The notes beneath the pieces are model-generated. The model had not been told where the DNA came from. It saw only the letters and a program-made list of their open reading frames with translations, and did no database searches. A stretch of 46,703 nt of DNA from Escherichia phage 1H12: sequence record NC_049947.1; one strand, given 5' to 3'. The stretch's first letter is position 1. Each line of letters begins with the position of its first letter. The position numbers and the translations under genes were made by a program. Of this stretch, positions 5,738 to 39,194 are shown piece by piece.

Positions 5738-5746
5738 GGGATGTTT

Positions 5747-7597: not shown

Positions 7598-7608
7598 CGG
7601 GAGGCGCT

Positions 7609-7962: not shown

Positions 7963-7973
7963 AAGGGGGATGT

Positions 7974-8944: not shown

Positions 8945-8951
8945 GGACGAT

Positions 8952-9692: not shown

Positions 9693-9707
9693 TCCGGAGA
9701 GTCAGCG

Positions 9708-10546: not shown

Positions 10547-10772
10547 ACCGGTAGGCGATCTGGTCGTTGATTTAAGTCTGGATGCGGCCAGATTTGACGA
10601 GCAGATGGCCAGAGTCAGGCGTCATTTTTCCGGTACGGAAAGTGATGCGAAAAAAACAGCGGCAGTCGTTGAACAGTCGCTGAGCCGACAGGCGCTGGCT
10701 GCACAGAAAGCGGGGATTTCCGTCGGGCAGTATAAAGCCTGCCATGCGTATGCTGCCTGCGCAGTTCACTGA
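10539..10772 (+). pseudogene. H: tape measure protein H, N-terminal fragment (first ~66 codons match lambda gpH, then frame is lost)
   Basis: MAEPVGDLVVDLSLDAARFDEQ...GQYKA matches the lambda gpH N-terminus; an extra nucleotide near 10737-10741 (gcctgcc versus lambda gccgcc) shifts the frame to a stop at 10770..10772. Confidence 0.7.
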
Positions 10773-13119: not shown

Positions 13120-13445
13120 AAACCTTCCGCTGGAAAGTGAAACCGGGTATGGATGTGGCTTCGACTCCTTCCGTCAGGGAGGTGCGCTTTGGTGATGGCT
13201 ATTCCCAGCGAGCGCCTGCCGGGCTGAATGCCAACCTGAAAACGTACAGCGTGACGATTTCTGTCCCCCGTTGGGAGGCCACGGCGCTGGAATCGTTTCT
13301 GGCAGAGCACGGAGGCTGGAAAGCCTTTCTGTGGACGCCGCCTTATGACTGGCGGCAGATAAAGGTGACCTGCGCAAAATGGACGTCGCGGGTCAGTATG
13401 CTGCGTGTTGAGTTCAGCGCAGAGTTTAAACAGGTGGTGAACTGA
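13116..13445 (+). CDS. M: minor tail protein M
   Basis: 109-aa ORF overlapping the H stop; lambda gpM. Confidence 0.9.
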   Translation: MKTFRWKVKPGMDVASTPSVREVRFGDGYSQRAPAGLNANLKTYSVTISVPRWEATALESFLAEHGGWKAFLWTPPYDWRQIKVTCAKWTSRVSMLRVEFSAEFKQVVN

Positions 13446-14143
13446 TGCAGGATATCCGGCAGGAAACACTGAATGAATGCACCCGTGCGGAGCAGTCGGC
13501 CAGCGTGGTGCTCTGGGAAATCGATCTGACAGAGGTCGGTGGTGAACGTTATTTTTTCTGTAATGAGCAGAACGAAAAAGGTGAGCCTGTCACCTGGCAG
13601 GGGCGGCAGTATCTGGCGTATCCCATTCAGGGGAGTGGTTTTGAACTGAATGGCAAAGGCACCAGTACGCGCCCCACGCTGGCAGTCTCTAACCTGTACG
13701 GCATGGTCACCGGGATGGCGGAAGACCTGCAGAGTCTGGTCGGCGGAACGGTGGTCAGGCGTAAGGTTTACGCCCGTTTTCTGGATGCGGTGAACTTCGT
13801 CAACGGAAACAGCGATGCCGATCCGGAGCAGGAGGTGATCAGCCGCTGGCGCATCGAGCAGTGCAGCGAACTGAGCGCGGTAAGTGCCTCCTTTGTACTG
13901 TCCACGCCGACGGAAACGGATGGTGCTGTTTTTCCGGGGCGCATCATGCTGGCCAACACCTGTACCTGGACCTATCGCGGTGATGAGTGCGGTTATAGCG
14001 GTCCGGCGGTCGCGGATGAATATGACCAGCCGACGTCCGATATCACGAAGGATAAATGCAGCAAATGCCTGAGTGGCTGTAAGTTTCGCAATAATGTCGG
14101 CAACTTTGGCGGCTTCCTTTCCATTAACAAACTTTCGCAGTAA
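13445..14143 (+). CDS. L: minor tail protein L
   Basis: 232-aa ORF; lambda gpL with the C-terminal Cys cluster. Confidence 0.9.
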   Translation: MQDIRQETLNECTRAEQSASVVLWEIDLTEVGGERYFFCNEQNEKGEPVTWQGRQYLAYPIQGSGFELNGKGTSTRPTLAVSNLYGMVTGMAEDLQSLVGGTVVRRKVYARFLDAVNFVNGNSDADPEQEVISRWRIEQCSELSAVSASFVLSTPTETDGAVFPGRIMLANTCTWTYRGDECGYSGPAVADEYDQPTSDITKDKCSKCLSGCKFRNNVGNFGGFLSINKLSQ

Positions 14144-14148
14144 ATCCC

Positions 14149-14892
14149 ATGACAGAGACAGAATCAGCGATTCTGGCGCACGCCCGGCGATGTGCGCCAG
14201 CGGAGTCGTGCGGCTTCGTGGTGAGAACGCCGGAGGGGGAAAGATATTTTCCCTGCGTGAATATCTCCGGTGAGCCGGAGGATTATTTCCGGATGTCGCC
14301 GGAGGACTGGCTGCAGGCAGAGATGCAGGGTGAGATTGTGGCGCTGGTCCACAGTCATCCCGGTGGTCTGCCCTGGCTGAGTGAGGCCGACCGGCGGCTG
14401 CAGGTGCAGAGTGATTTGCCGTGGTGGCTGGTCTGCCGGGGGGCGATTCACAAGTTCCGCTGTGTGCCGCATCTCACCGGGCGGCGCTTTGAGCACGGGG
14501 TGACGGACTGTTACACGCTGTTCCGGGACGCTTACCATCTGGCGGGGATTGAGATGCCGGATTTTACGCGGGAGGATGACTGGTGGCGTCACGGTCAGAA
14601 TCTCTATCTGGATAATCTGGAGGCAACGGGGCTGTATCAGGTGCCGTTGTCAGCGGCGCAGCCGGGCGATGTGCTGCTGTGCTGCTTTGGTTCATCGGTG
14701 CCGAATCATGCCGCTATTTACTGTGGTGACGGCGAGCTGCTGCACCATATTCCTGAACAACTGAGCAAACGAGAGAGGTATACCGACAAATGGCAGCGAC
14801 GCACACACTCCCTCTGGCGTCACCGGGCATGGCACGCATCTGCCTTTACGGGGATTTGCAACGATTTGGCCGCCGCATCGATCTTCGTGTGA
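14149..14892 (+). CDS. K: tail tip assembly protein K
   Basis: 247-aa ORF with HSHPGG motif and a C-terminal Cys-His region; the classic lambda K annotation starts at the internal Met (14293). Confidence 0.85.
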   Translation: MTETESAILAHARRCAPAESCGFVVRTPEGERYFPCVNISGEPEDYFRMSPEDWLQAEMQGEIVALVHSHPGGLPWLSEADRRLQVQSDLPWWLVCRGAIHKFRCVPHLTGRRFEHGVTDCYTLFRDAYHLAGIEMPDFTREDDWWRHGQNLYLDNLEATGLYQVPLSAAQPGDVLLCCFGSSVPNHAAIYCGDGELLHHIPEQLSKRERYTDKWQRRTHSLWRHRAWHASAFTGICNDLAAASIFV

Positions 14893-15461
14893 AAACGGGG
14901 GCTGAAGCTATCCGGGCGCTGGCCACACAGCTCCCGGCGTTTCGTCAGAAACTGAGCGACGGCTGGTATCAGGTACGGATTGCCGGGCGGGACGTCAGCA
15001 CGTCCGGGTTAACGGCGCAGTTACATGAGACTCTGCCTGATGGCGCTGTGATTCATATTGTTCCCAGAGTCGCCGGGGCCAAGTCAGGTGGCGTATTCCA
15101 GGTTGTCCTGGGGGCTGCCGCCATTGCCGGATCATTCTTTACCGCCGGAGCCACCCTTGCAGCATGGGGGGCAGCCATTGGGGCCGGTGGTATGACCGGC
15201 ATCCTGTTTTCTCTCGGTGCCAGTATGGTGCTCGGTGGTGTGGCGCAGATGCTGGCACCGAAAGCCAGAACTCCCCGTACACAGACAACGGATAACGGCA
15301 AACAGAACACCTATTTCTCCTCACTGGATAACATGGTTGCCCAGGGCAATGTTCTGCCGGTTCTGTACGGTGAAATGCGCGTGGGGTCACGCGTGGTTTC
15401 TCAGGAGATCAGCACGGCAGACGAAGGGGATGGTGGTCAGGTTGTGGTGATTGGTCGCTGA
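14790..15461 (+). CDS. I: tail tip assembly protein I
   Basis: 223-aa ORF overlapping K; lambda gpI. Confidence 0.9.
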   Translation: MAATHTLPLASPGMARICLYGDLQRFGRRIDLRVKTGAEAIRALATQLPAFRQKLSDGWYQVRIAGRDVSTSGLTAQLHETLPDGAVIHIVPRVAGAKSGGVFQVVLGAAAIAGSFFTAGATLAAWGAAIGAGGMTGILFSLGASMVLGGVAQMLAPKARTPRTQTTDNGKQNTYFSSLDNMVAQGNVLPVLYGEMRVGSRVVSQEISTADEGDGGQVVVIGR

Positions 15462-15521
15462 TGCAAAATGTTTTATGTGAAACCGCCTCCGGGCGGTTTT
15501 GTCGTTTATGGAGCATGACGA

Positions 15522-18500
15522 ATGGGTAAAGGCAGCAGTAAGGGGCATACCCCGCGCGAAGCGAAGGACAACCTGAAGTCCACGCAGCTGCTGAGTGTGA
15601 TCGATGCCATCAGCGAAGGGCCGGTTGAAGGTCCGGTGGATGGATTAAAAAGCGTGCTGCTGAACAGTACGCCGGTGCTGGACAGTGAGGGGAATACCAA
15701 TATCTTCGGTGTCACGGTGGTGTTCCGGGCAGGTGAGCAGGAGCAGACTCCGCCGGAGGGGTTTGAATCCTCCGGCTCCGAGACGGTGCTGGGTACGGAA
15801 GTGAAATATGACATGCCGATCACCCGCACCATCACGTCGGCAAACATCGACCGTCTGCGCTTTACTTTCGGCGTGCAGGCACTGGTGGAAACTACCTCAA
15901 AGGGGGACAGGAATCCGTCGGAAGTCCGTCTGCTGGTTCAGATACAGCGTAATGGTGGCTGGGTGACGGAAAAAGACATCACCATTAAAGGCAAAACCAC
16001 CTCGCAGTATCTGGCCTCGGTGGTGGTGGATAACCTGCCGCCGCGCCCGTTTAATATCCGGATGCGCAGGATGACGCCGGACAGCACCACAGACCAGCTG
16101 CAGAACAAAACGCTCTGGTCGTCATACACCGAAATCATCGATGTGAAACAGTGCTACCCGAACACGGCACTGGTCGGCGTGCAGGTGGACTCGGAACAGT
16201 TCGGCAGTCAGCAGGTGAGCCGTAATTATCATCTTCGCGGGCGCATTCTGCAGGTGCCGTCGAACTATAACCCGCAGACGCGGCAATACAGCGGTATCTG
16301 GGACGGAACGTTAAAACCGGCATACAGCAACAACATGGCCTGGTGTCTGTGGGATATGCTGACCCATCCGCGCTACGGCATGGGAAAACGTCTTGGTGCG
16401 GCGGATGTGGATAAATGGGCGCTGTATGTCATCGGCCAGTACTGCGACCAGTCGGTGCCGGACGGCTTTGGCGGCACGGAGCCGCGCATTACCTGTAATG
16501 CGTACCTGACCACACAGCGCAAGGCGTGGGATGTGCTCAGTGATTTCTGCTCGGCGATGCGCTGTATGCCGGTATGGAACGGGCAGACGCTGACGTTCGT
16601 GCAGGACCGACCATCAGATAAGGTGTGGACCTATAACCGCAGTAATGTGGTGATGCCGGATGATGGCGCGCCGTTCCGCTACAGCTTCAGCGCCCTGAAG
16701 GACCGCCATAATGCCGTTGAGGTGAACTGGATTGACCCGGATAACGGCTGGGAGACGGCGACAGAGCTCGTGGAGGATACGCAGGCCATTGCCCGTTACG
16801 GTCGTAATGTCACGAAGATGGATGCCTTTGGCTGTACCAGTCGGGGGCAGGCACACCGCGCCGGGCTGTGGCTGATTAAAACGGAACTGCTGGAAACGCA
16901 GACCGTGGATTTCAGCGTCGGCGCAGAAGGGCTTCGCCATGTACCGGGCGATGTTATTGAAATCTGTGATGATGACTATGCCGGTATCAGCACCGGTGGT
17001 CGTGTGCTGGCGGTGAACAGCCAGACCCGGACGCTGACGCTCGACCGTGAAATCACGCTGCCATCCTCCGGTACCACGCTGATAAGCCTGGTTGACGGAA
17101 GTGGCAATCCGGTCAGCGTGGAGGTTCAGTCCGTCACCGACGGCGTGAAGGTAAAAGTGAGCCGTGTTCCTGACGGTGTTGCTGAATACAGCGTATGGGG
17201 GCTGAAGCTGCCGACGCTGCGCCAGCGCCTGTTCCGCTGTGTGAGTATCCGGGAGAACGATGACGGTACGTATGCCATCACCGCCGTGCAGCATGTACCG
17301 GAAAAAGAAGCCATCGTGGATAACGGGGCGCACTTTGACGGCGACCAGAGCGGCACGGTGAATGGTGTCACGCCGCCAGCGGTGCAGCACCTGACCGCCG
17401 AAGTCACCACAGACAGCGGGGAATATCAGGTGCTGGCGCGATGGGACACGCCGAAGGTGGTGAAGGGCGTGAGCTTCCTGCTTCGCCTTACCGTGGCAGC
17501 GGACGACGGCAGTGAGCGGCTGGTCAGCATGGCCCGGACGACGGAAACCACATACCGCTTCAGGCAACTGGCGCTGGGGAACTACAGGCTGACAGTCCGG
17601 GCGGTAAATGCGTGGGGGCAGCAGGGCGATCCGGCATCGGTATCGTTCCGGATTGCCGCACCGGCAGCGCCGTCGCAGATTGAGCTGACACCGGGGTATT
17701 TTCAGATAACCGCCACGCCCCATCTTGCCGTTTATGATCCGACGGTACAGTTTGAGTTCTGGTTCTCGGAAAAGCGGATTGCGGATATCAGGCAGGTTGA
17801 AACCACAGCCCGCTATCTTGGCACGGCGCTGTACTGGATAGCTGCCAGTATCAATATCAAACCGGGCCATGATTATTATTTTTACATCCGCAGTGTGAAC
17901 ACCGTTGGCAAATCGGCATTTGTGGAGGCTGTTGGCCAGCCGAGTGATGATGCATCCGGCTATCTGGATTTTTTCAAAGGCGAGATAGGGAAAAGCCATC
18001 TGGCTCAGGAGCTGTGGACGCAGATTGATAACGGTCAGCTTGCGCCTGACCTGGCTGAAATCAGGACGTCCATTACGGATGTCAGCAATGAAATCACGCA
18101 GACCGTCAATAAGAAACTGGAAGACCAGAGTGCGGCAATTCAGCAGATACAGAAGGTTCAGGTTGATACAAATAATAACCTGAACAGCATGTGGGCTGTG
18201 AAGCTGCAGCAGATGCAGGACGGACGCCTTTATATCGCGGGTATTGGTGCCGGTATTGAGAACACCCCTGACGGCATGCAGAGTCAGGTGCTGCTGGCGG
18301 CGGACAGGATTGCGATGATTAATCCTGCGAATGGCAATACAAAGCCGATGTTTGTTGGGCAGGGCGATCAGATATTCATGAACGAAGTGTTCCTGAAATA
18401 TCTGACGGCTCCCACCATTACCAGCGGTGGCAATCCCCCAACGTTTTCACTGACACCTGATGGTCGACTTTCTGCGAGAAATGCGGATATCAGCGGTAAC

Positions 18501-29196: not shown

Positions 29197-29415
29197 TCAC
29201 AATCCCCATTGTTTGTTCTTAAGTTCGATCTCCTCCTGGCAACTTGCACAAGTCCGACAACCCTGAACGACCAGGCGTCTTCGCTCATCTATCGGATCGC
29301 CACACTCACAACAATGAGTGGCAGATACAGTCTGGTAGTTCAGACGACGCATTTTTATTGCTGTATTGCGCTGTAATTCTTCGATTTCTGATGCTGAATC
29401 AATGATGTCTGCCAT
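29197..29415 (-). CDS. DksA/TraR-family C4 zinc-finger protein
   Basis: 72-aa ORF with CxxC...CxxC (CCECGDPIDERRRLVVQGCRTCASC). Confidence 0.75.
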   Translation of the reverse strand: MADIIDSASEIEELQRNTAIKMRRLNYQTVSATHCCECGDPIDERRRLVVQGCRTCASCQEEIELKNKQWGL

Positions 29416-29513
29416 CTTCCATTAATCCCTGAATTGTTGGTTAATACGCTTGAGGGTGAATGCGAATAATAAAAAAGGAGCCTGTAGCTCCCTGATGATT
29501 TTGCTTTTCATGT

Positions 29514-29813
29514 TCATCGCTCCTTAAAGACGCCGTTTAACATGCCGATCGCCAGGCTTAAATGAGTCGGTGTGAATCCCATCAGCGTTACCGTTTCGCG
29601 GTGCTTCTTCAGTACGCTACGGCAAATGTCATCGACGTTTTTATCCGGAAACTGCTGTCTGGCTTTTTTGATTTCAGAGTTAGCTTGACGGGCAATGCTG
29701 CGAAGGGCGTTTTTCTGCTGAGGTGTCACTGAACAAGCCCCATGCCGGAAAGCATAAGCACACAGAATATGAAGCCCGCCGCCAGAAAAATGCATTCTGT
29801 TGTTGTCATGCAA
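29514..29813 (-). CDS. hypothetical protein (lambda early-left small ORF-like; start uncertain)
   Basis: 99-aa ORF in the position of the small lambda ORFs between xis and exo. Confidence 0.5.
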   Translation of the reverse strand: MHDNNRMHFSGGGLHILCAYAFRHGACSVTPQQKNALRSIARQANSEIKKARQQFPDKNVDDICRSVLKKHRETVTLMGFTPTHLSLAIGMLNGVFKER

Positions 29814-29997
29814 GCTCTCTCTCGTTTGCCTCTGCTTTCGCCGCCATCATTTCCAGCTTTTGTGAAAGGGATGCGGCTAACGTATGAAATTCTTCGTCTG
29901 TTTCTGCTGGTATTGGCACAAACCTGACTCCAATTTGAGCAAGGCTATGTGCCATCTCAATGCTCGTTCTTAACTCAACAGGAGATGCTTTGTGCAT
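29806..29997 (-). CDS. hypothetical protein (lambda orf63-like)
   Basis: 63-aa ORF, same size and position as lambda orf63. Confidence 0.55.
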   Translation of the reverse strand: MHKASPVELRTSIEMAHSLAQIGVRFVPIPAETDEEFHTLAASLSQKLEMMAAKAEANERELA

Positions 29998-30158
29998 ACA
30001 GCCCCTCGTTTATTATTTATCTCCTCAGCCAGCCGCTGGGCTTTCAGTGGATTTTGGATAACAGAAAGGCCGGGAAATACCCAGCCTCGCTTTGTAACGG
30101 AGTAGACGAAAGTGATCGCGCCTACCCGGATATTATCGTGAGGATGCGTCATCGCCAT
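29970..30158 (-). CDS. hypothetical protein (lambda orf60a-like)
   Basis: 62-aa ORF immediately before exo in transcription order. Confidence 0.5.
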
Positions 30159-30829
30159 TGCTCCCCAAATACAAAACCAATTTCAGCCAGTGCCTCGTCC
30201 ATTTTTTCGATGAACTCCGGCACCATCTCGTCAAAACTCGCCATGTACTTTTCATCCCGCTCAACCACGACATAATGCAGTCCTTCACGCTTCATACGCG
30301 GGTCATAGTTGGCAAAGTACCAGGCATCTTTTCGTGTCACCCACATGCTGTACTGCACCTGGGCCATGTAAGCCGACTTTATGGCCTCGAAACCACCGAG
30401 CCGGAACTTCATGAAATCCCGGGAGGTAAACGGGCATTTCAGCTCAAGGCCATTGCCGTCACTGCATAAACCATCGGGAGAGCAGGCGGTGCGCATACTT
30501 TCGTCGCGATAGATGATCGGGGATTCAGTAACATTCACGCCGGAAGTGAATTCAAACAGAGTTCTGGCGTCGTTCTCGTACTGTTTTCCCCAGGCCAGCG
30601 CCTTAGCATTAACTTCCGGAGCCACACCGGTGCAAACCTCAGCCAGCAGGGTGTGGAAGTAGGACATTTTCATGTCAGGCCACTTCTTTCCTGAGCGGGG
30701 CTTTGCTATCACGTTGTGAACTTGTGAAGCGGTGATGACGCCGAGCCGTAATTTGTGCCACGCATCATCTCCCTGCTCGATAGCTCTCACGTCGATCCCG
30801 GTACGCTGCAGGATAATGTCCGGTGTCAT
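30149..30829 (-). CDS. exo: lambda exonuclease (Red-alpha)
   Basis: 226-aa [38 protein letters not shown], near-identical to lambda Exo. Confidence 0.95.
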
Positions 30830-31611
30830 GCTGCCACCTTCTGTTCAGTGGCTTTTTGTTTCAGGAATCCAAGAGCTTTCACTGCTTCGTCCTGTGTCAG
30901 TTCTGACGATGCACGAATGTCGCGGCGAAATATCTGGGAACAGAGCGGCAATAAGTCGTCATCCCATGTTTTATCCAGGGCGATCAGCAGAGTGTTAATC
31001 TCCTGCATGGTTTCATCGTTAACCGGAGTGATGTCGCGTTCCGGCTGACGTTCTGCAGTGTATGCGGTATTTTCGACAATGCGCTCGGCTTCATCCTTGT
31101 CATAGATACCAGCAAATCCGAAGGCGAGACGGGCACACTGAATCATGGCTTTATGCCGTAACATCCGTTTGGGATGCGACTGCCACGGCCCCGTGATTTC
31201 TCTGCCTTCGCGAGTTTTGAATGGTTCGCGGCGGCATTCATCCATCCATTCGGTAACGCAGATCGGATGATTACGGTCCTTGCGGTAAATCCGGCATGTA
31301 CAGGATTCATTGTCCTGCTCAAAGTCCATGCCATCAAACTGCTGGTTTTCATTGATGATGCGGGACCAGCCATCAACGCCCACCACCGGAACGATGCCGT
31401 TCTGCTTATCAGGGAAGGCGTAAATTTCTTTCGTCCACGGATTAAGGCCGTACTGGTTGGCGACGATCAACAATGCGATGAACTGCGCATCGCTGGCATC
31501 ACCTTTAAATGCCGTCTGGCGAAGAGTGGTGATCAGTTCCTGTGGGTCGACAGAATCCATGCCGACACGTTCAGCCAGCTTCCCTGCCAGCGTTGCGAGT
31601 GCTGTACTCAT
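30826..31611 (-). CDS. bet: recombination protein Bet (Red-beta)
   Basis: 261-aa [40 protein letters not shown] matching lambda Bet. Confidence 0.95.
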
Positions 31612-31616
31612 CCGTT

Positions 31617-32033
31617 TTATACCTCTGAATCAATATCAACCTGGTGGTGAGCAATGGTTTCAACCATGTACCGGATGTGTTCTGCCATGCGCTCCTGAAA
31701 CTCAACATCGTCATCAAACGCACGGGTAATGGCTTTTTTGCTGGCCCCGTGGCGTTGCAAATGATCGATGCATAGCGATTCAAACAGGTGCTGGGGCAGG
31801 CCTTTTTCCATGTCGTCTGCCAGTTCTGCCTCTTTCTCTTCACGGGCGATCTGCTGGTAGTGACGCGCCCAGCTCTGAGCCTCAAGACGATCCTGAATGT
31901 AATAAGCGTTCATGGCTGAACTCCTGAAATAGCTGTGAAAATATCGCCCGCGAAATGCCGGGCTGATTAGGAAAACAGGAAAGGGGGTTAGTGAATGCTT
32001 TTGCTTGATCTCAGTTTCAGTATTAATATCCAT
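31617..32033 (-). CDS. gam: host-nuclease (RecBCD) inhibitor Gam
   Basis: 138-aa ORF matching the long form of lambda Gam. Confidence 0.9.
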
Positions 32034-32131
32034 TTTTTATAAGCGTCGACGGCCTCACGAAACATCTTTTCATCGCCAATAAAAGTGGCGATAGTGAATT
32101 TAGTCTGGATAGCCATAAGTGTTTGATCCAT
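31988..32131 (-). CDS. kil: host cell-division inhibitor Kil
   Basis: Internal ATG gives a 47-aa product [47 protein letters not shown], as lambda Kil. Confidence 0.8.
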
Positions 32132-32264
32132 TTTTTGGGACTCCTGGCTGATTAAGTATGTCGATAAGGCGTTTCCATCCGTCACGTAATTTACGGGTGA
32201 TTCGTTCAAGTAAAGATTCGGAAGGGCAGCCAGCAACAGGCCACCCTGCAATGGCATATTGCAT
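32100..32264 (-). CDS. cIII: CIII, FtsH (HflB) protease inhibitor that stabilises CII
   Basis: Reverse-strand translation gives [54 protein letters not shown] (54 aa, below the ORF-track cutoff), matching lambda CIII. Confidence 0.8.
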   Translation of the reverse strand: MQYAIAGWPVAGCPSESLLERITRKLRDGWKRLIDILNQPGVPKNGSNTYGYPD

Positions 32265-32336
32265 GGTGTGCTCCTTATTTATACATAACGAAAAACGCCT
32301 CGAGTGAAGCGTTATTGGTATGCGGTAACGCCGCGC

Positions 32337-32705
32337 TCAGGCGGCTTTGATAGTCATATCATCTGAATCAAATATTCCTGATGTATCGATATCGGTAATT
32401 CTTATTCCTTCGCTACCATCCATTGGAGGCCATCCTTCCTGACCATTTCCATCATTCCAGTCGAACTCACACACAACACCATATGCATTTAAGTCGCTTG
32501 AAATTGCTATAAGCAGAGCATGTTGCGCCAGCATGATTAATACAGCATTTAATACAGAGCCGTGTTTATTGAGTCGGTATTCAGAGTCTGACCAGAAATT
32601 ATTAATCTGGTGAAGTTTTTCCTCTGTCATTACGTCATGGTCGATTTCAATTTCTATTGATGCTTTCCAGTCGTAATCAATGATGTATTTTTTGATGTTT
32701 GACAT
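32337..32705 (-). CDS. ea10: Ea10-like protein
   Basis: 122-aa ORF MSNIKKYIIDYDWKASIEIEIDHDVMTEEK matching lambda Ea10. Confidence 0.85.
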   Translation of the reverse strand: MSNIKKYIIDYDWKASIEIEIDHDVMTEEKLHQINNFWSDSEYRLNKHGSVLNAVLIMLAQHALLIAISSDLNAYGVVCEFDWNDGNGQEGWPPMDGSEGIRITDIDTSGIFDSDDMTIKAA

Positions 32706-32722
32706 CTATTCATATCCTCACA

Positions 32723-32752
32723 GATAAAAAATCGCCCTCACATTGGAGGGCA
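32723..32752 (-). terminator. putative rho-independent terminator in the leftward early transcript (tL-like)
   Basis: Hairpin gccctc-acattg-gagggc with a U-run on the reverse strand. Confidence 0.55.
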
Positions 32753-32965
32753 AAGAAGATTTCCAATAATCAGAACAAGTCGGCTCCTGTTTAGTTACGA
32801 GCGACATTGCTCAGTGTATTCACTCGTTGGAATGAATACACAGTGCAGTGTTTATTAGTATGCCTGTCTTTTAACCACATCAGGCTCGGTGGTTCTCGTG
32901 TACCCCTACAGCGAGAAATCGGATAAACTCTATTCACCCCTACAGAGAGCAAAAGAGAAACGCCG

Positions 32966-33547
32966 ATGAACAACTCATGGTGGCAGGAACTAATGCATTT
33001 TTTCCTGCAAGGAATGACACTTAAACAGTTGATTCATATGCTAATCATCCTGATCATATTGATTATTGTTATGCCTGTAAGCGTAAAAGAATGGATAAAC
33101 CTGCATAATCCAGAAATCCTTCCTCATTACTGGATGTATTACATCCTGTTGTTTTGCGTTAGCTATGTGCTTAACGGCGTTGTTAATTCCGCTTATCACG
33201 CTGTGACTGTAAGAATTGAGATATTCGCTGCTCAGAAGCGCAAATCTAAAGAAGAGAAATACGTGCAAGATTTGTTTGATTCGTTAACTCTTGGAGAAAG
33301 AGCGTATTTGGCATTCGCTGTAGCCGCTAATAACCAGCTAAAGACAGAAAAGGGAAGCCCTGAAGCAATCTCATTGCTCGAAAAAGGGCTTCTTATTCGG
33401 GTACCTTCTGCTACTGGATATCCTGAAATCGACCGTTTTGTTATCCCGGAACGCTATAGAAATGAGTGCTACATTAGGTTTGCTGGGAAGAAAGACAGTC
33501 TTATGGATGAACTTATCGCTCAGGATAAGCATGGCAAAAACAAGTAA
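32966..33547 (+). CDS. sieB: superinfection exclusion protein B
   Basis: 193-aa ORF with an N-terminal membrane segment (MNNSWWQELMHFFLQGMTLKQLIHMLIILIILIIV), matching lambda/Rac SieB; transcribed opposite to the early-left operon. Confidence 0.85.
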   Translation: MNNSWWQELMHFFLQGMTLKQLIHMLIILIILIIVMPVSVKEWINLHNPEILPHYWMYYILLFCVSYVLNGVVNSAYHAVTVRIEIFAAQKRKSKEEKYVQDLFDSLTLGERAYLAFAVAANNQLKTEKGSPEAISLLEKGLLIRVPSATGYPEIDRFVIPERYRNECYIRFAGKKDSLMDELIAQDKHGKNK

Positions 33548-33563
33548 TTAGCAAATGAATTTA

Positions 33564-33872
33564 TCATCTCGCCGTCAGTTGTTTTGATTTCCGGTAGCCT
33601 GCCGCGTAAATAGCTACGTTTGGCAGGCAAACACTTCCACTGCATTCATCTACTTTCTTGCAGCGAAGGCTTCCGAGTGATATTGCTTTTTCAGAAAGGC
33701 TTAACCGCTTTCTCGGGTCTTCCTGAACAGGTTCCTCACTGTCTGTGCCGAAGATCGAATCGATGATGTTGCAGATGGAATCACGCTCGATGGCCAGCTT
33801 TCTGCGCCGCTCATGACGGCGAGTTTTGGCATTTCCTGCAAATGTTGATTTTCCGTACACGATTACCGTCAT
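33564..33872 (-). CDS. N: antitermination protein N (P22 gene 24 type)
   Basis: Internal ATG gives MTVIVYGKSTFAGNAKTRRHERRRKLAIERD..., an arginine-rich motif closely resembling P22 gp24. Confidence 0.8.
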   Translation of the reverse strand: MTVIVYGKSTFAGNAKTRRHERRRKLAIERDSICNIIDSIFGTDSEEPVQEDPRKRLSLSEKAISLGSLRCKKVDECSGSVCLPNVAIYAAGYRKSKQLTAR

Positions 33873-33990
33873 GATGTTTTCCTCATGTGAAATGGCTTTG
33901 GTGGTGATGCGCCAGATGCTGATCTTCTGGTTGCTGTCGTTACTGCTGCAATTCACATCACCCCAAACCCATCTCGTTTGGTATCTGTTC

Positions 33991-34023
33991 GCGCTTTGTC
34001 AGCGCATCATCGAAGTTAAAGAG
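33991..34023 (-). promoter_or_regulatory. nutL: nutL (boxA and boxB), P22-type
   Basis: Reverse strand reads boxA-like gctctttaa then boxB hairpin gcgctgacaaagcgc upstream of N. Confidence 0.6.
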
Positions 34024-34288
34024 CCTGCCAATCTGTTCCGTTTGGCTGCCAGCGTCCTGCTGATGGCGATTATAATGAACCAATAGTTCGATATTATCAA
34101 GAACTATAAGTACGAATTGTTTGTGGTTCATTAACTTAATGAGATATGTTTTTGATATGTAAAGGAATTTATTTTTGTAAAGATTGAAGATTGGTCAGTA
34201 GGAGAGAAAGAATTGTTTGCTGGCGTGTTAGTTCGTGGGTTAGCACATGTGCGGATGTTAAATAAGGTAGACGATCGTGAGGAAAAGA

Positions 34289-34311
34289 AAAACCGGCGCT
34301 GAGGCCGGGTA
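34289..34311 (-). terminator. putative rho-independent terminator after the 299-aa gene
   Basis: Reverse strand: cccggcc-tcagc-gccgg then tttttcttttcc, starting 4 nt past the stop codon. Confidence 0.55.
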
Positions 34312-34314
34312 TAA

Positions 34315-35214
34315 TTATTTGATTATTTCTTTTATAAAGACTTCTTTCGGTTGGTATTTTTTATCTGATGATTTGAGCTGGTACGTTATTGTTATATCAG
34401 CACGTACAGAAAATTTACCTGCAAAATCTGATGGGTTTACGTTGGGGCCAAGAACCATATTTACTCTTCGATCTATTAATCCAGGGATAACAGCAGCCCA
34501 ACCTTTCTCTGGATTGTCGAGGTCTAATGCACGGATTTCAACATCAACATCAAAATGATCCTGAGTATATGACTCTGGTGTGAAGACAACTTCAGTTGGG
34601 GCTTTTTTAATGGTTTCAGCGGGAATGGTCACTGTACCACCCCCTGTACCTATGACCATCGTAGATCCTTCGTCTGCCCTAGCTGGGGCAAGCGTCTTAA
34701 TGGAACTTTTGGCAAGAGTCTTCTTATTGGTTACCGTGCTTTCTATGATTGCTTGAAGACGGTCAGGTGAAATATTAGCCTCACCGGCACCAATATTGAT
34801 GATTGTATTGTTATTTGCTTCAAAGTGGGAGGTGTTGCTTGGAGCCATAGCCTTAGTTGCTAGAACTAAGCCATATCCAACCAGACCAATAACAACAGCA
34901 CCAACGAGAGCGTTTCTCATTTTCCCATTTCCGATCTTTGCATGAGCGCCAGCAAGAAACTTGTCCATTTCTTCTTGGCTACCAAAGAGGAGTTTAATAA
35001 CAATATCTTCATAAAGGCTTCCTGCTTCTAATCGCGCAACATGCACCGATATATCAAGGATATTAGCCCCTGTCAGTTCCTGCAAAACACCTTCTGATTG
35101 TTTTGCGATGGCCTCCCACCCTTGAAGGGAGGTAATCACATCTTTGATGCTTACAGGTTCTTTAGTTGAATAATATATGTTTTCGGTAAAGGTTAAAGAT
35201 AATTCTTGGGACAT
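34315..35214 (-). CDS. hypothetical single-pass membrane protein at the rexAB-equivalent position (candidate phage exclusion / abortive-infection protein)
   Basis: 299-aa ORF with RBS gaggg 5 nt upstream; one hydrophobic segment (~residues 100-122, NALVGAVVIGLVGYGLVLATKAM); AT-rich; lies between cI and the pL/nutL/N region. Confidence 0.65.
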   Translation of the reverse strand: MSQELSLTFTENIYYSTKEPVSIKDVITSLQGWEAIAKQSEGVLQELTGANILDISVHVARLEAGSLYEDIVIKLLFGSQEEMDKFLAGAHAKIGNGKMRNALVGAVVIGLVGYGLVLATKAMAPSNTSHFEANNNTIINIGAGEANISPDRLQAIIESTVTNKKTLAKSSIKTLAPARADEGSTMVIGTGGGTVTIPAETIKKAPTEVVFTPESYTQDHFDVDVEIRALDLDNPEKGWAAVIPGLIDRRVNMVLGPNVNPSDFAGKFSVRADITITYQLKSSDKKYQPKEVFIKEIIK

Positions 35215-35343
35215 CCGAGCCCTCGCTGTTTCTTTCGATTTGCTGTGTTAAGCTAATATTTTAATATCCATGTTTCTGTTTGCTTGCAGTGTGTTTCTCA
35301 CCACCATCCAAACGTACTGGTTACTAGCTATGTGATGATGAAG

Positions 35344-36051
35344 TCATGAACTTTTCAGCCATTCCCTGGCCTCGATGTCATCTAGGTGGCGAGATTGCTT
35401 CAGAATACCAGCTACATACTCCACCTTTGCTACTTGATGATAAGGCAACGTTATTGGCCTGTGGTCTTGGTTGATGCTTGTAAATTGGTATTCTCCGTCT
35501 CTGTCATAGCCAAGAACCTTGATCATGTTGTGCCCTTCAATGGTTCTGACAAACACCTCATCACCTGGGAATACTTTGGTGTTAGGCTCAATGAGTACAT
35601 ATTCTCCTGATTTTATTCTGGGCCACATGCTGTCTCCTTTTACACGAAGACCAAAGGCATCTGGATCATCGCTATAAATCTTGAGCCACCCATCGCGCTC
35701 TTCGGTCATCTCGATGGCACCATCAACACCAAGAATTGCCTCACCAACCACGCGCACTAACCCTTTTTTTAATTTGCCAACAATTGAAAAAGTATCTTCA
35801 TCATTCGCTCCATTTAACGAAGTGCCGTGCTGAAGCCAAACAACATCAACGTTTAGAAATTTCGCAAGCGCATTCATTTTTTCCTGGCGTGGTAAAGACT
35901 CAGCATTAAACCATTTGCTAACGCCTTTGGACGAAAGAGAAAGGGCACGGGCTATGGCCATTCCCCTACCATGTTCATCAAGACCAGCTTCTTTACAGGC
36001 TTGCGCTAGCCGCTGGGCGAATTCTTTGCGCACTTTTTCATTCTGAACCAT
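35344..36051 (-). CDS. cI: CI prophage repressor (HTH plus S24 LexA-like autopeptidase)
   Basis: 235-aa ORF with an N-terminal HTH and C-terminal S24 Ser/Lys region (GDSMWPRI...K), divergent from cro. Confidence 0.85.
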   Translation of the reverse strand: MVQNEKVRKEFAQRLAQACKEAGLDEHGRGMAIARALSLSSKGVSKWFNAESLPRQEKMNALAKFLNVDVVWLQHGTSLNGANDEDTFSIVGKLKKGLVRVVGEAILGVDGAIEMTEERDGWLKIYSDDPDAFGLRVKGDSMWPRIKSGEYVLIEPNTKVFPGDEVFVRTIEGHNMIKVLGYDRDGEYQFTSINQDHRPITLPYHQVAKVEYVAGILKQSRHLDDIEAREWLKSS

Positions 36052-36129
36052 GAGTACGATACTAAAGCACTTGCAAAAACTTTCAGTTCAACCATAATGC
36101 GTACTGAAAGTACGAAAAAGGACATTCCT
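36052..36129. promoter_or_regulatory. OR: OR operator / pRM-pR divergent promoter region
   Basis: Intergenic between divergent cI and cro; perfect palindrome cgtactgaaagtacg (36100..36114) and related half-site actttcagt (36079..36087). Confidence 0.6.
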
Positions 36130-36357
36130 ATGCAAAATCTTGATGAGCCGATTAAAGGTGTCGGCATCCCTGAAGTTGCGAAGGCTTGTGGAGTTAGCGA
36201 AAGGGCTGTCTATAAGTGGCTCAAAAACGGCTTCCTCCCTAAGACTGAGTTTTTTGGGAAAACGAAATACGCATCAAAAATCGAAGAGATTTCTGGTGGC
36301 AAATATCAAGCAAGCGAAATGCTTGAAATAAGCAAAAAGAACCTTCTGGCAGCATAA
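36130..36357 (+). CDS. cro: Cro repressor
   Basis: ATG at 36130 after RBS aaaaagga; 75-aa HTH protein (GIPEVAKACGVSERAVYKWL), divergent from cI. Confidence 0.8.
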   Translation: MQNLDEPIKGVGIPEVAKACGVSERAVYKWLKNGFLPKTEFFGKTKYASKIEEISGGKYQASEMLEISKKNLLAA

Positions 36358-36363
36358 GTAACA

Positions 36364-36398
36364 CCGCTCTTTATCAATCTGCACCGCCGACAACGCGG
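36364..36398 (+). promoter_or_regulatory. nutR: nutR (boxA and boxB), P22-type
   Basis: boxA cgctcttta followed by boxB hairpin accgc-cgacaac-gcggt. Confidence 0.6.
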
Positions 36399-36463
36399 TA
36401 ACTAATTAAGAACTCATCGAAAGATGCGTATTAGTGATTATTTACCTATGGAAATAGTAAGAA

Positions 36464-36763
36464 ATGGAACAAACAAATTACAGCAAACTATCACAGCGCG
36501 ACGTTGATCGCGCAGAAACAGATTTACTTATCAACCTGTCAACGCTTACTCAGCGCGGTCTGGCAAAGATGATTGGCTGTCATGAATCGAAGATAAGCAG
36601 AACAGACTGGAGGTTTATAGCTTCGGTCTTGTGTGCTTTTGGCATGGCATCAGACATCAGTCCGATTAGCAGAGCTTTTAAGTATGCGCTTGATGAAATC
36701 ACCAATAAAAAACGCCCGGTGTGCAAGACCGAGCGTTCTGAACAAATCCAGATGGAGTTCTGA
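36464..36763 (+). CDS. cII: transcriptional activator CII
   Basis: 99-aa ORF; C-terminus TNKKRPVCKTERSEQIQMEF matches lambda CII. Confidence 0.85.
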   Translation: MEQTNYSKLSQRDVDRAETDLLINLSTLTQRGLAKMIGCHESKISRTDWRFIASVLCAFGMASDISPISRAFKYALDEITNKKRPVCKTERSEQIQMEF

Positions 36764-36785
36764 GGTCATTACTGGATCTATCAAC
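36707..36785 (-). ncRNA. oop: OOP antisense RNA (antisense to the 3' end of cII)
   Basis: Reverse strand reads gttgatagatccagtaatgacctcagaactccatctggatttgttcagaacgctcgg...caccgggcgttttttatt, matching lambda OOP including its terminator. Confidence 0.6.
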
Positions 36786-36795
36786 AGGAGTCATT

Positions 36796-37695
36796 ATGAC
36801 AAATACAGCAAAAATACTCAACTTCGGCAGAGGTAACTTTGCCGGACAGGAGCGTAATGTGGCAGATCTCGATGATGGTTACGCCAGACTATCAAATATG
36901 CTGCTTGAGGCTTATTCGGGCGCAGATCTGACCAAGCGACAGTTTAAAGTGCTGCTTGCCATTCTGCGTAAAACCTATGGGTGGAATAAACCAATGGACA
37001 GAATCACCGATTCTCAACTTAGCGAGATTACAAAGTTACCTGTCAAACGGTGCAATGAAGCCAAGTTAGAACTCGTCAGAATGAATATTATCAAGCAGCA
37101 AGGCGGCATGTTTGGACCAAACAAAAACATCTCAGAATGGTGCATCCCTCAAAACGAGGGAAAATCCCCTAAAACGAGGGATAAAACATCCCTCAAATTG
37201 GGGGATTGCTATCCCTCAAAACAGGGGGACACAAAAGACACTATTACAAAAGAAAAAAGAAAAGATTATTCGTCCGAGAATTCTGGCGAATCCTCTGACC
37301 AGCCAGAAAACGATCTTTCTGTGGTTAAACCGGATGCTGCAATTCAGAGCGGCAGTAAGTGGGGAACAGCAGAAGACCTGACCGCCGCAGAGTGGATGTT
37401 TGACATGGTGAAGACCATCGCGCCATCAGCCAGAAAACCGAATTTTGCTGGGTGGGCTAACGATATCCGCCTGATGCGTGAACGTGACGGACGTAACCAC
37501 CGCGATATGTGTGTGCTTTTCCGCTGGGCCTGCCAGGACAACTTCTGGTCCGGTAACGTGCTGAGTCCGGCCAAACTCCGCGACAAGTGGACCCAGCTCG
37601 AAATCAACCGTAACAAGCAACAGGCTGGCGTGACAGCCGGAAAACCAAAACTCGACCTGACAAACACTGACTGGATTTACGGGGTGGATCTATGA
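36796..37695 (+). CDS. O: replication initiator O
   Basis: 299-aa ORF MTNTAKILNFGRGNFAGQERNVADLDDGYARLSNMLLEAY matching lambda gpO. Confidence 0.95.
   Translation: MTNTAKILNFGRGNFAGQERNVADLDDGYARLSNMLLEAYSGADLTKRQFKVLLAILRKTYGWNKPMDRITDSQLSEITKLPVKRCNEAKLELVRMNIIKQQGGMFGPNKNISEWCIPQNEGKSPKTRDKTSLKLGDCYPSKQGDTKDTITKEKRKDYSSENSGESSDQPENDLSVVKPDAAIQSGSKWGTAEDLTAAEWMFDMVKTIAPSARKPNFAGWANDIRLMRERDGRNHRDMCVLFRWACQDNFWSGNVLSPAKLRDKWTQLEINRNKQQAGVTAGKPKLDLTNTDWIYGVDL
37144..37275 (+). repeat. ori: replication origin inside O: four iterons plus adjacent A/T-rich segment
   Basis: Four ~18-bp repeats of the type atccctcaaaacgaggga followed by A-rich sequence. Confidence 0.8.
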
Positions 37696-38393
37696 AAAAC
37701 ATCGCCGCACAGATGGTTAACTTTGACCGTGAGCAGATGCGTCGGATCGCCAACAACATGCCGGAACAGTACGACGAAAAGCCACAGGTACAGCAGGTAG
37801 CGCAGATCATCAACGGTGTGTTCAGCCAGTTACTGGCAACTTTCCCGGCGAGCCTGGCTAACCGTGACCAGAACGAACTGAACGAAATCCGCCGCCAGTG
37901 GGTTCTGGCTTTCCGGGAAAACGGGATCACCACAATGGAACAGGTTAACGCAGGAATGCGCGTAGCCCGTCGGCAGAATCGACCATTTCTGCCATCACCC
38001 GGGCAGTTTGTTGCATGGTGCCGGGAAGAAGCATCCGTTATCGCCGGACTGCCAAACGTCAGCGAGCTGGTTGATATGGTTTACGAGTATTGCCGGAAGC
38101 GAGGCCTGTATCCGGATGCGGAGTCTTATCCGTGGAAATCAAATGCGCACTACTGGCTGGTTACCAACCTGTATCAGAACATGCGGGCCAATGCGCTTAC
38201 TGATGCGGAATTACGCCGTAAGGCCGCAGATGAGCTTGTCCATATGACTGCGAGAATTAACCGTGGTGAGGCGATCCCTGAACCAGTAAAACAACTTCCT
38301 GTCATGGGCGGTAGACCTCTAAATCGTGCACAGGCTCTGGCGAAGATCGCAGAAATCAAAGCTAAGTTCGGACTGAAAGGAGCAAGTGTATGA
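37692..38393 (+). CDS. P: replication protein P (DnaB helicase loader)
   Basis: 233-aa ORF matching lambda gpP. Confidence 0.95.
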   Translation: MKNIAAQMVNFDREQMRRIANNMPEQYDEKPQVQQVAQIINGVFSQLLATFPASLANRDQNELNEIRRQWVLAFRENGITTMEQVNAGMRVARRQNRPFLPSPGQFVAWCREEASVIAGLPNVSELVDMVYEYCRKRGLYPDAESYPWKSNAHYWLVTNLYQNMRANALTDAELRRKAADELVHMTARINRGEAIPEPVKQLPVMGGRPLNRAQALAKIAEIKAKFGLKGASV

Positions 38394-38680
38394 CGGGCAA
38401 AGAGGCAATTATTCATTACCTGGGGACGCATAATAGCTTCTGTGCGCCGGACGTTGCCGCGCTAACAGGCGCAACAGTAACCAGCATAAATCAGGCCGCG
38501 GCTAAAATGGCACGGGCAGGTCTTCTGGTTATCGAAGGTAAGGTCTGGCGAACGGTGTATTACCGGTTTGCTACCAGGGAAGAACGGGAAGGAAAGATGA
38601 GCACGAACCTGATTTTTAAGGAGTGTCGCCAGAGTGCCGCGATGAAACGGGTATTGGCGGTATATGGAGTTAAAAGATGA
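38390..38680 (+). CDS. ren: Ren protein
   Basis: 96-aa ORF matching lambda Ren. Confidence 0.85.
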   Translation: MTGKEAIIHYLGTHNSFCAPDVAALTGATVTSINQAAAKMARAGLLVIEGKVWRTVYYRFATREEREGKMSTNLIFKECRQSAAMKRVLAVYGVKR

Positions 38681-38753
38681 CCATCTACATTACTGAGCTA
38701 ATAACAGGCCTGCTGGTAATCGCAGGCCTTTTTATTTGGGGGAGAGGGAAGTC

Positions 38754-39194
38754 ATGAAAAAACTAACCTTTGAAATTCGATCTCCAGCACATCAGCAAAA
38801 CGCTATTCACGCAGTACAGCAAATCCTTCCAGACCCAACCAAACCAATCGTAGTAACCATTCAGGAACGCAACCGCAGCTTAGACCAAAACAGGAAGCTA
38901 TGGGCCTGCTTAGGTGACGTCTCTCGTCAGGTTGAATGGCATGGTCGCTGGCTGGATGCAGAAAGCTGGAAGTGTGTGTTTACCGCAGCATTAAAGCAGC
39001 AGGATGTTGTTCCTAACCTTGCCGGGAATGGCTTTGTGGTAATAGGCCAGTCAACCAGCAGGATGCGTGTAGGCGAATTTGCGGAGCTATTAGAGCTTAT
39101 ACAGGCATTCGGTACAGAGCGTGGCGTTAAGTGGTCAGACGAAGCGAGACTGGCTCTGGAGTGGAAAGCGAGATGGGGAGATCGGGCTGCATGA
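38754..39194 (+). CDS. ninB: recombination protein NinB
   Basis: ATG at 38754 after RBS gagggaag; MKKLTFEIRSPAHQQNAIHAVQQILPDP matches lambda NinB. Confidence 0.85.
   Translation: MKKLTFEIRSPAHQQNAIHAVQQILPDPTKPIVVTIQERNRSLDQNRKLWACLGDVSRQVEWHGRWLDAESWKCVFTAALKQQDVVPNLAGNGFVVIGQSTSRMRVGEFAELLELIQAFGTERGVKWSDEARLALEWKARWGDRAA

Follow-up and report, generated by a model that had tools for sequence, protein, structure and literature searches.

Introduction

The closest described counterparts of the early control region analysed here are those of the Stx2 phage 933W and of P22. Published work on 933W reports non-cooperative repressor binding, a low repressor level, immunity to 933W superinfection, and the lack of an OL3 operator. 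The 933W operators span 15 bp. Their half-sites have G at position 2, apart from one half-site of OR2, do not vary at positions 4 and 5, and have T at position 6 in seven cases of ten and C in the other three (PMC3317979). OR2 carries a single core mismatch, and residues S41, K42 and K46 belong to the recognition helix of the 933W repressor, CI (PMC3317979). In lambda, the operators are 17 bp long, three of them in OL, and the gene order is N-nutL-OL/PL-rexBA-cI-OR-cro-nutR-cII. This order and its logic are kept in the region described below.

We analysed a stretch of 46,703 nucleotides from Escherichia phage 1H12 (NC_049947.1), hereafter the window. A sequence-only reading of positions 33564-36400 had proposed a mosaic, in which P22-type N and nut sites are combined with a non-lambda cI/cro pair. 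All the features it described are present, and our results support the mosaic. The early control region is very likely that of a natural lambdoid phage, in which a 933W switch and a P22-class N/nut module are combined with lambda recombination and replication genes.

Results

A lambda backbone with an exchanged control region

The whole window matches LR595860.1 (Escherichia virus Lambda_2E9, genus Jouyvirus) and eight sister phages at 100%. Its backbone is 95-99% identical to lambda, with positions 32861-36698 exchanged. The flanking recombination and replication genes had been described as lambda-like, and indeed the identity to lambda is 97.5% on the left (29220-32856) and 98.7% on the right (36699-39194, with the C-terminus of cII, O, and P). 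Positions 32946-36698 gave no match to lambda DNA, and the block at 32861-34067 is 80% identical to the sieB-gene 24-nutL segment of P22. The genes and the site at the two ends of the exchanged segment are:

32966..33547, + strand: sieB (superinfection exclusion B; Pfam SieB, E 3e-25), the leftmost gene of the P22-like block, which extends through N and nutL
36464..36763, + strand: cII (Pfam Phage_CII, E 7e-34), 933W-like in its 5' part and lambda-like in its 3' part, from 36699
36486-36473, - strand: putative PRE cII site, TTGC-N6-TTGT, read from the sequence by analogy with lambda

The module junctions fall at short sequences common to phage families, namely the PL transcript start and boxA. 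An Rfam search of 33500-36500 with E up to 1 gave no matches, and the only Rfam match in the whole window was the lambda cIII thermoregulator. A literature search by phage names returned nothing relevant.

Repressor and Cro of the 933W type

35344..36051, - strand: cI repressor, 933W type, with helix-turn-helix (HTH) and S24 autopeptidase domains (Pfam HTH_3, Peptidase_S24)
36130..36357, + strand: cro, 933W type, 75 aa, identical to 933W Cro in 75/75 residues

The claim that cI and cro are not of lambda immunity was borne out, and the pair could be assigned further: judged by its sequence, it is specifically that of 933W. CI is identical to its 933W counterpart at 232 of 235 positions. The DNA-binding domain (residues 1-87) is identical throughout, including the recognition-helix residues S41, K42 and K46, and the three substitutions (L88F, F90I, V171I) all lie outside it. 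Lambda CI shows a weak similarity, restricted to the S24 domain, and no alignment was obtained between Cro and lambda Cro. Together with the DNA of 32946-36698, both proteins thus set the region apart from imm-lambda. P22 immunity (immC: c2/cro) does not fit either, with P22 c2 being 24% identical to CI over part of its length, and the alignment of the two Cro proteins being limited to a 15-residue HTH stretch. A PDB sequence search with CI gave no meaningful match.

The right operator

36100..36114, unstranded: OR1, CGTACTGAAAGTACG, identical to the oR1 annotated in 933W
36076..36090, unstranded: OR2, AAAACTTTCAGTTCA, identical to the oR2 annotated in 933W, with one core mismatch
36044..36058, unstranded: OR3, TGAACCATGAGTACG, identical to the oR3 annotated in 933W, overlapping both the start codon of cI and the start of PRM
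36071..36098, + strand: PR, with a -35 TTGCAA, a 16-nt spacer and a -10 CATAAT, found by consensus scan and coinciding with the annotated 933W pR
36059..36086, - strand: PRM, with a -10 TAGTAT at 36064-36059, transferred from the 933W pM annotation (NC_000924, HM208303), where the sequence is identical

All three OR operators occupy the same positions as those annotated in 933W (NC_000924), and the core mismatch of OR2 is the one found in 933W OR2 (PMC3317979). OR1 corresponds to what had been called a perfect palindrome. The repeat is present, but strictly it consists of 6-bp inverted arms around a 3-bp asymmetric center, and 3 of its 15 positions change in the reverse complement. The OR1 15-mer occurs once in the window (36100-36114), and nowhere else in it even if three mismatches are allowed. 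By analogy with 933W, the cI mRNA from the predicted PRM would be essentially leaderless.

The left operator

34076..34090, unstranded: OL1, TGAACCAATAGTTCG, matching both 933W and the OL1 annotated in GQ499361 at 15/15 positions, with a perfect core
34100..34114, unstranded: OL2, AGAACTATAAGTACG, with a perfect core, 13/15 identical to 933W OL2 (AGAACTATTGGTACG)
34072..34100, - strand: predicted PL, with a -35 TTGATA (34100-34095), a 17-nt spacer and a -10 CATTAT (34077-34072), found by consensus scan and homologous to the PL/OL region of 933W

The sequence-only reading had left OL unmapped or of different sequence, having searched 34090-34290 with the OR1 15-mer. An exact search confirms that this 15-mer is absent there. 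OL1 and OL2 were nevertheless found, with the 933W core, OL beginning about 14-15 bp to the left of the searched interval; the five operators have in common only their 4-bp half-site cores. OL2 deviates from 933W at the non-core positions 7' and 6'. Position 6' is T, not the C favoured by the 933W repressor, and therefore the repression of PL could differ quantitatively from that in 933W. The scan for a third OL operator, with one core mismatch allowed, found none. Its only extra match (34110-34122) was rejected as OL3, because it shares 5 bp with OL2 and lacks conservation in 933W. Transcription from PL would start near 34064-34065, and the annotated 5' end of the P22 PL RNA aligns to about 34064.

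The operators as a set

A search for the half-site motif across the window showed that the operator core, GWAC-N5-GTWC, is enriched, with eight matches against 1.6 expected and none of 100 shuffles reaching eight. Four of the eight lie within two short intervals flanking the cI operon, and OR2 adds a fifth site with one mismatch. These five 15-bp operators, with positions 2-5 conserved (G, A/T, A, C), reproduce the properties of the 933W operators stated in PMC3317979; their positions rest on GenBank annotations and on that study. They do not lie outside the promoters but overlap the predicted PR, PRM and PL. The predicted PR hexamers overlap OR2 and OR1, and those of PL overlap OL1 and OL2, all as consensus matches from a scan that overall found no more promoters than expected from shuffles. 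The 933W DNA-binding domain in CI and the 933W-type Cro complete the sequence features by which the switch is assigned to the 933W type.

A probable P22-class antitermination module

33564..33872, - strand: N antiterminator, 102 aa (Pfam N_peptide, E 4e-40), starting with the ATG at 33872, not with the GTG of the open reading frame at 33956
33889..33975, - strand: long leader-RNA hairpin of N, with nutL on one side and the ribosome-binding site of N on the other
34015..34024, - strand: nutL boxA, GCTCTTTAAC, the same as in P22, as is the 9-nt spacer that separates it from boxB
33991..34005, - strand: nutL boxB, GCGCTGACAAAGCGC, identical to P22 nutL boxB and folding into a 5-bp stem with a GACAA loop
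36365-36373, + strand: nutR boxA, CGCTCTTTA, part of nutR (36365..36399)
36383-36399, + strand: nutR boxB, ACCGCCGACAACGCGGT, an exact match to P22

N aligns far better with P22 gp24 (71/101 identities, 70%, E 2e-48) than with lambda N (E 0.023). Its N-terminal arginine-rich motif (residues 13-31, GNAKTRRHERRRKLAIERD) had been called P22 gp24-like, and it aligns with that of gp24 without a mismatch. The middle part of the protein is moderately similar to P22, and the last 22 residues are of the 933W/HK97 type, being 100% identical to the N of 933W and phi24B. As these alignments indicate, N is itself a mosaic that joins an arginine-rich motif of the P22 gp24 type to a C-terminus of the 933W/HK97 type. 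Since the C-terminus is not P22-like, N may contact host factors and RNA polymerase in the manner of 933W/HK97 instead of that of P22. No meaningful match to N came from a PDB sequence search.

A boxA and a boxB with a GACAA loop are present both downstream of PL and downstream of cro, and both boxB hairpins, read earlier as P22-like, are identical to those of P22. Over the whole of nutR about 36 of 38 positions are identical to P22 (a manual count from the alignment), the two differences lying in boxA and the spacer. Because the nutL of 933W has an identical boxB, boxB alone does not separate P22 from 933W ancestry. The P22 type of the nut sites instead appears in the flanking boxA and spacer, taken together with the arginine-rich motif. 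The immunity block lies between N with nutL on one side and nutR on the other.

The N leader folds with a z of -4.2, and its stem is kept relative to P22 through four compensatory pair changes. By analogy with the lambda N leader, it may act as an RNase III or translational-control hairpin.

ORF299 and the end of the cI operon

34315..35214, - strand: ORF299, 299 aa, with a hydrophobic, probably membrane-spanning central helix, in the rexAB/stk slot downstream of cI
34293..34308, - strand: intrinsic terminator of the cI operon, found by terminator scan and folding, a homologue of 933W tM that aligns with the annotated tM

No terminator was predicted between cI and ORF299. The protein matches phrog_4506, annotated as of unknown function, and was assigned to no family in Pfam or PADLOC. 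Its AlphaFold model (pLDDT 83) had no named or convincing match in BFVD, the two best TM-scores being at most 0.43. In Pectobacterium prophages, homologues are located immediately downstream of the gene for a CI-like repressor. ORF299 is conserved and prophage-borne, and it is the lone unexplained element of the interval. Tentatively, it could be a new superinfection-exclusion or abortive-infection determinant expressed in the lysogen.

Discussion

The region can be described as three known modules joined on a lambda backbone, with lambda-type recombination and replication genes on both sides. From published 933W and P22 work we infer DNA binding, repression, lack of cooperativity, and immunity specificity for CI, and antitermination for N. 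In the lysogen, CI dimers would bind the 15-bp operators through the core G(A/T)AC-N5-GT(A/T)C. OR1 and OR2 would cover PR, OR3 would cover the starts of PRM and cI, and OL1 and OL2 would cover PL, with OL3 absent. Cro, identical to 933W Cro, would act at the same operators. Transcription of cI, and probably of ORF299, would proceed from PRM and end at the tM-like terminator. Induction of the prophage would follow from RecA-stimulated self-cleavage of CI, whose S24 domain is LexA-like. The PL and PR transcripts would carry nutL and nutR, each with a boxA and a boxB hairpin. N would bind boxB via its gp24-type arginine-rich motif and make RNA polymerase pass terminators toward the recombination genes and toward cII-O-P.

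Relative to 933W, and likewise to phi24B and Stx2 phage I, the likeness extends beyond cI, Cro, OR1-3 and OL1 to the 24/32/24-bp operator spacing, the lack of OL3, the positions of PR and PRM, and a homologous tM. The differences lie around this core. The two non-core substitutions in OL2 distinguish the phage from 933W, and the segment from OL to the terminator is only 73% identical. Between cI and tM, 933W has stk and other genes, whereas here a single unrelated gene of 299 aa is found, so that OL and OR are 2.0 kb apart, compared with about 3.1 kb in 933W. N and nutR are of the HK97/933W type in 933W, where nutR has a longer spacer and another boxB, and of the P22 type here. Furthermore, the phage has a lambda backbone and no stx. 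With P22 it shares the arginine-rich motif, the boxA-spacer-boxB of nutL, the boxB of nutR, and the N-leader hairpin, but its N/nut module is linked to 933W operators, not to P22 c2/immC. With lambda it shares the flanks, and the rexAB slot again holds an accessory gene; it differs in having 15-bp operators, two OL sites, an N of another specificity class, a Cro without detectable similarity, and a CI alike only in the S24 domain.

The same combination is found in the Stx2a phages LC616031-LC616076 (e.g. Stx2_EH1965), which carry a P22-class N-terminus of N (97% identical over residues 1-73), P22-type nutL and nutR, and the 933W cI/OR/cro. Their cI-cro-nutR-cII segment is 97.3% identical to ours, with an exact match of the nutR 38-mer. 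They differ in having the 933W version of OL2, another 3' end of N and another cargo between OL and cI, and they are Sepvirinae Stx phages, not lambda-backbone phages. In total, about 50 Stx2a phage records have N/nut combined with imm933W. The whole 2.8 kb is present at >=99% identity in 150 of 5426 complete E. coli genomes (about 3%), from humans, chickens and water. The combination of N/nut and imm933W is viable in nature, as these Stx2a phages and E. coli genomes demonstrate.

Exchanging the immunity region of lambda is a classical way of making hybrids, and a backbone 95-99% identical to lambda would suit a laboratory hybrid or an assembly chimera. Such an origin is hardly credible. Nine phage genomes, deposited independently, and the 150 complete E. 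coli chromosomes contain the identical 2.8 kb, and a hybrid or artefact is rejected because of this distribution in natural genomes; the location of the junctions at short sequences common to phage families also speaks against it. We regard it as improbable, though less so, that the antitermination module belongs functionally to the 933W/HK97 class and that the P22-type label overstates the mosaicism. The nutL boxB GCGCTGACAAAGCGC is exactly the same in 933W and phi24B, their nutR boxB has the same GACAA loop, the 933W arginine-rich motif (GNSRSRRRERLKAKAL) resembles that of P22, and the last 22 residues of N are entirely 933W-type. On the other hand, N at full length is 70% identical to gp24 and 43% to phi24B N (by MAFFT; BLAST aligns just the 22-residue tail), its arginine-rich motif has no mismatch to P22, boxA-spacer-boxB at nutL and nutR match P22 and not 933W, and the sieB-N-nutL block around N has 80% identity to P22 DNA.

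A drift of the immunity specificity from 933W to a new immunity type would be compatible with the 73% identity of the OL region, the two of 15 positions changed in OL2, and the three substitutions in cI. We consider this very unlikely, given that the DNA-binding domain of CI, Cro, OR1-3 and OL1 are all identical to 933W, and that the OL2 changes, at 6' and 7', lie outside the invariant core, with T being the commonest natural base at position 6. A natural phage with the 933W switch and a P22-class N/nut module stays the preferred reading. For this phage we predict homoimmunity with 933W, and heteroimmunity with lambda and with P22.

The mechanistic gain is small, since all the working parts closely copy elements already characterised in 933W and P22. 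The region is, however, a clean case of modular exchange, in which the arginine-rich motif of N, nutL and nutR travel together across a foreign immunity block. As far as its sequence indicates, a non-toxigenic lambda-backbone prophage has the immunity specificity of the Stx2 phage 933W. Commensal lysogens of this prophage would thus be immune to Stx phages of the 933W type, and would also offer them homology for recombination. Both predictions bear on the spread of Stx phages in the gut.

Mosaic composition of the control region

As judged by sequence comparison, the control region is set within a 3.75-kb substitution in lambda-like surroundings. A DNA match to lambda is absent from 32946-36698, and the closest relative changes along the segment.

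Composition of the control region and its surroundings (window positions)
2-18018, structural genes: 95-97% identity to lambda
29220-32856, exo-bet-gam-kil-cIII-ea10: 97.5% identity to lambda
32861-34067, sieB, gene 24 (N), nutL, up to the aligned 5' end of the P22 PL RNA: closest to P22 (80%)
33564-33634, 3' end of N: closest to 933W (93%)
34052-34309, PL/OL through the tM terminator: closest to 933W (73%)
34310-35315, 299-codon ORF: matches none of the four compared relatives
35316-36368, cI, OR, cro: closest to 933W (about 97%)
36365-36402, nutR: closest to P22 (about 36/38)
about 36445-36698, 5' part of cII: 933W-like
36699-39194, 3' end of cII, O, P, ren, ninB: 98.7% identity to lambda

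The identities on either side bear out the lambda-like flanks described in a sequence-only reading, whose view of the region as a mosaic is supported. The left joint lies within a short stretch, ATCAGCAGGACGCTGG, at the PL transcript start, common to P22 and in part to 933W, and the right joint lies within boxA, directly past the cro stop codon. Lambdoid module exchange typically leaves joints at short common sequences of this sort. A match to the lambda cIII thermoregulator RNA (Rfam RF01804, 88.5 bits) at 32219-32277 on the minus strand confirms a lambda-type cIII leader.

Immunity and operators

On the sequence evidence, the immunity type is imm933W, that of the Shiga-toxin phage 933W.

Genes, operators and promoters of the switch
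34076-34090, OL1: identical to 933W
34100-34114, OL2 (AGAACTATAAGTACG): departs from 933W only at 7' and 6'
34100-34072, minus strand, predicted PL: TTGATA-17-CATTAT, consensus scan
35344-36051, minus strand, cI: 232/235 identical to 933W cI
36044-36058, OR3: identical to 933W
36059-36086, PRM: annotation transfer from 933W
36071-36098, predicted PR: TTGCAA-16-CATAAT, consensus scan
36076-36090, OR2: identical to 933W
36100-36114, OR1: identical to 933W
36130-36357, cro: 75/75 identical to 933W Cro

None of the three cI substitutions (L88F, F90I, V171I) falls in the N-terminal DNA-binding domain. The protein consists of HTH_3 and Peptidase_S24 domains, and 37 residues separate Ser141 (in GDSM) from Lys178, the same spacing as in the LexA catalytic dyad. 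The lambda and P22 repressors resemble it only in the S24 and HTH folds, and lambda offers no match for Cro, in line with the non-lambda cI/cro pair seen previously. The 75-aa Cro start at 36130 has an AAGGA ribosome-binding site and agrees with the 933W cro annotation. In LR595860.1, Cro is annotated as 86 aa (36097-36357, plus strand), from an ATG inside PR -10/OR1 that would be located upstream of the predicted PR start. At the cII 5' end, TTGC-TGTAAT-TTGT (36473-36486, minus strand) is followed 13 nt further on by TACTAT, a geometry like that of the lambda PRE cII-binding site and its -10; it is a putative PRE site.

The 933W-type operator reference set was taken from GenBank record annotations (OR1, CGTACTGAAAGTACG; OR2, AAAACTTTCAGTTCA; OR3, TGAACCATGAGTACG; OL1, TGAACCAATAGTTCG; OL2, AGAACTATTGGTACG). 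It agrees with all properties stated for the five natural 933W sites, which are 15 bp each and do not include an OL3, carry G at position 2 in every half-site but one, which belongs to OR2, are invariant at positions 4-5, and have T (7/10 half-sites) or C (3/10) at position 6 (Bullwinkle et al. 2012, PMC3317979). In a 111-bp alignment of OR with three 933W-type phages, the operators were all unchanged. The core G(A/T)AC-N5-GT(A/T)C occurs eight times in 46.7 kb, with 1.6 expected and 0/100 shuffles reaching eight; four of these matches belong to the five operators, and OR2 is a one-mismatch site. Centre-to-centre distances are 24 bp for both OL1-OL2 and OR1-OR2, and 32 bp for OR2-OR3. The core scan, with one mismatch allowed, found no OL3 at the expected location, and the only extra one-mismatch match was rejected because it overlaps OL2.

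The palindrome noticed earlier in OR is OR1; the "related half-site" is accounted for by OR2, whose 9-nt inverted core is shared with OR1, and by OR3. OL had been called unmapped or of different sequence. It is now located at 34076-34114. The sites were missed because the query was the OR1 15-mer and the search began at 34090, where OL1 ends. The published preference of the 933W repressor amounts to a more than 2.5-fold difference when positions 6 and 6' are both C. The 6' C-to-T change in OL2 loses a favoured base, thus at most a modest weakening is predicted at this site.

OL2 lies over the -35 hexamer of predicted PL and OL1 over its spacer and -10; at predicted PR, the -35 and spacer are covered by OR2, with OR1 directly downstream of the -10. 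OR3 covers the PRM start and the cI ATG. The total count of the consensus scan was not above shuffle expectation; the promoters are predictions supported by homology to features that have been mapped or annotated in 933W and P22. For example, predicted PR falls at the position of annotated 933W pR, and the P22 PL RNA 5' end aligns near 34064. A non-coding, AT-rich segment of about 180 bp (34115-34290) separates OL2 from the operon terminator and is alignable with 933W as part of the 73%-identical 34052-34309; a promoter, an Rfam family and an ORF were sought there, and none accounts for the segment.

N antiterminator and nut sites

33564-33872, minus strand, N: 102 aa
33991-34005, nutL boxB: GCGCTGACAAAGCGC
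34015-34024, nutL boxA: GCTCTTTAAC
36365-36373, nutR boxA
36383-36399, nutR boxB: ACCGCCGACAACGCGGT

N resembles the P22 antiterminator gp24 (71/101 identical, E 2e-48) rather than lambda N (E 0.023 only), as had been proposed. It matches Pfam N_peptide (E 4e-40), and its GNAKTRRHERRRKLAIERD has zero mismatches to gp24. N is itself mosaic, because the final 22 residues are 100% those of phi24B/933W N, while N from a set of Stx2a phages shares 97% identity with residues 1-73. An upstream GTG start from a mechanical ORF list was rejected in favour of an ATG that matches the gp24 start in the alignment and is preceded by a GAGGA ribosome-binding site.

In nutL, boxA, the 9-nt spacer and boxB are all identical to P22. 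nutR agrees with P22 and not with 933W, which has a longer spacer and a different boxB. Both boxB sequences fold into 5-bp hairpins and match P22 as anticipated, although the 933W nutL boxB is exactly that of phage 1H12 nutL. Therefore, boxB alone cannot tell the P22 from the 933W lineage; in this comparison, the nut flanks and the N arginine-rich motif do separate them.

A long hairpin follows nutL in the N leader and precedes the ribosome-binding site of N (33889-33975, minus strand). The leader folding has a z of -4.2, and compensatory changes, four in number, preserve the stem relative to P22; the RNase III hairpin of the lambda N leader is a possible equivalent. In the predicted fold, the boxA-boxB spacer CUUCGAUG also pairs with CAUGAGG at the ribosome-binding site, but this pairing shows no variation among the three sequences compared. 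Antisense to nutL and the leader, LR595860.1 annotates a "hypothetical protein" (phrog_6589; 33891-34086, plus strand), which is probably an annotation artefact carried among P22-like genomes. The same record names N "putative regulatory protein", labels Cro 933W-like, and annotates neither operators nor nut sites.

The gene downstream of cI

34315-35214, minus strand, ORF299: between cI and a tM-like terminator (34293-34308)

This 299-aa protein gene fills the rexAB/stk slot of the cI operon and is probably co-transcribed with cI from PRM, since the terminator scan predicted none between the two. The product, which has a hydrophobic central helix, is hydrophobic over about residues 100-122 and contains a conserved NNNTIINIGAGE motif. 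Searches of Pfam and PADLOC families gave no match, nor was a recognisable fold found; it matches only phrog_4506, a PHROG without assigned function, and all 56 homologues are unnamed or uninformatively named, mostly "hypothetical protein". In Pectobacterium prophages, a CI-like repressor gene again immediately precedes the homologue, both being on one strand, and in an Accumulibacter Mu-like prophage one adjoins the capsid protease gene. A reasonable guess is that ORF299 is a lysogen-expressed exclusion or defence determinant, like rexAB.

Proposed working and distribution

The switch would operate as the 933W type, with CI repressing PR and PL via the five sites. Upon induction, N would join the PL and PR transcripts at their P22-type nut sites, and these transcripts would then extend into the recombination and replication genes, which are of lambda type. 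Sequence identity and geometry are what the analysis shows; the rest of this working we infer from the 933W and P22 literature. 933W CI binds non-cooperatively, without an OL3-dependent loop, and its level in lysogens is low (Koudelka laboratory).

About 50 Stx2a phage records, LC616031-LC616076 among them, contain the combination of P22-class N/nut with 933W cI/OR/cro, and the full 2.8 kb is present at at least 99% identity in 150/5426 complete E. coli genomes. The arrangement therefore belongs to known kinds rather than to a new one, and the region is ordinary. Nine deposited phage genomes match the 2.8-kb interval at 100%, the first being Escherichia virus Lambda_2E9 (LR595860.1, 46,702 bp, genus Jouyvirus; window coordinate = record coordinate + 1). 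Two of the 150 carrier chromosomes (NZ_CP090319.1 and NZ_OZ546993.1) have an IS1 or IS5 element inserted within the interval.
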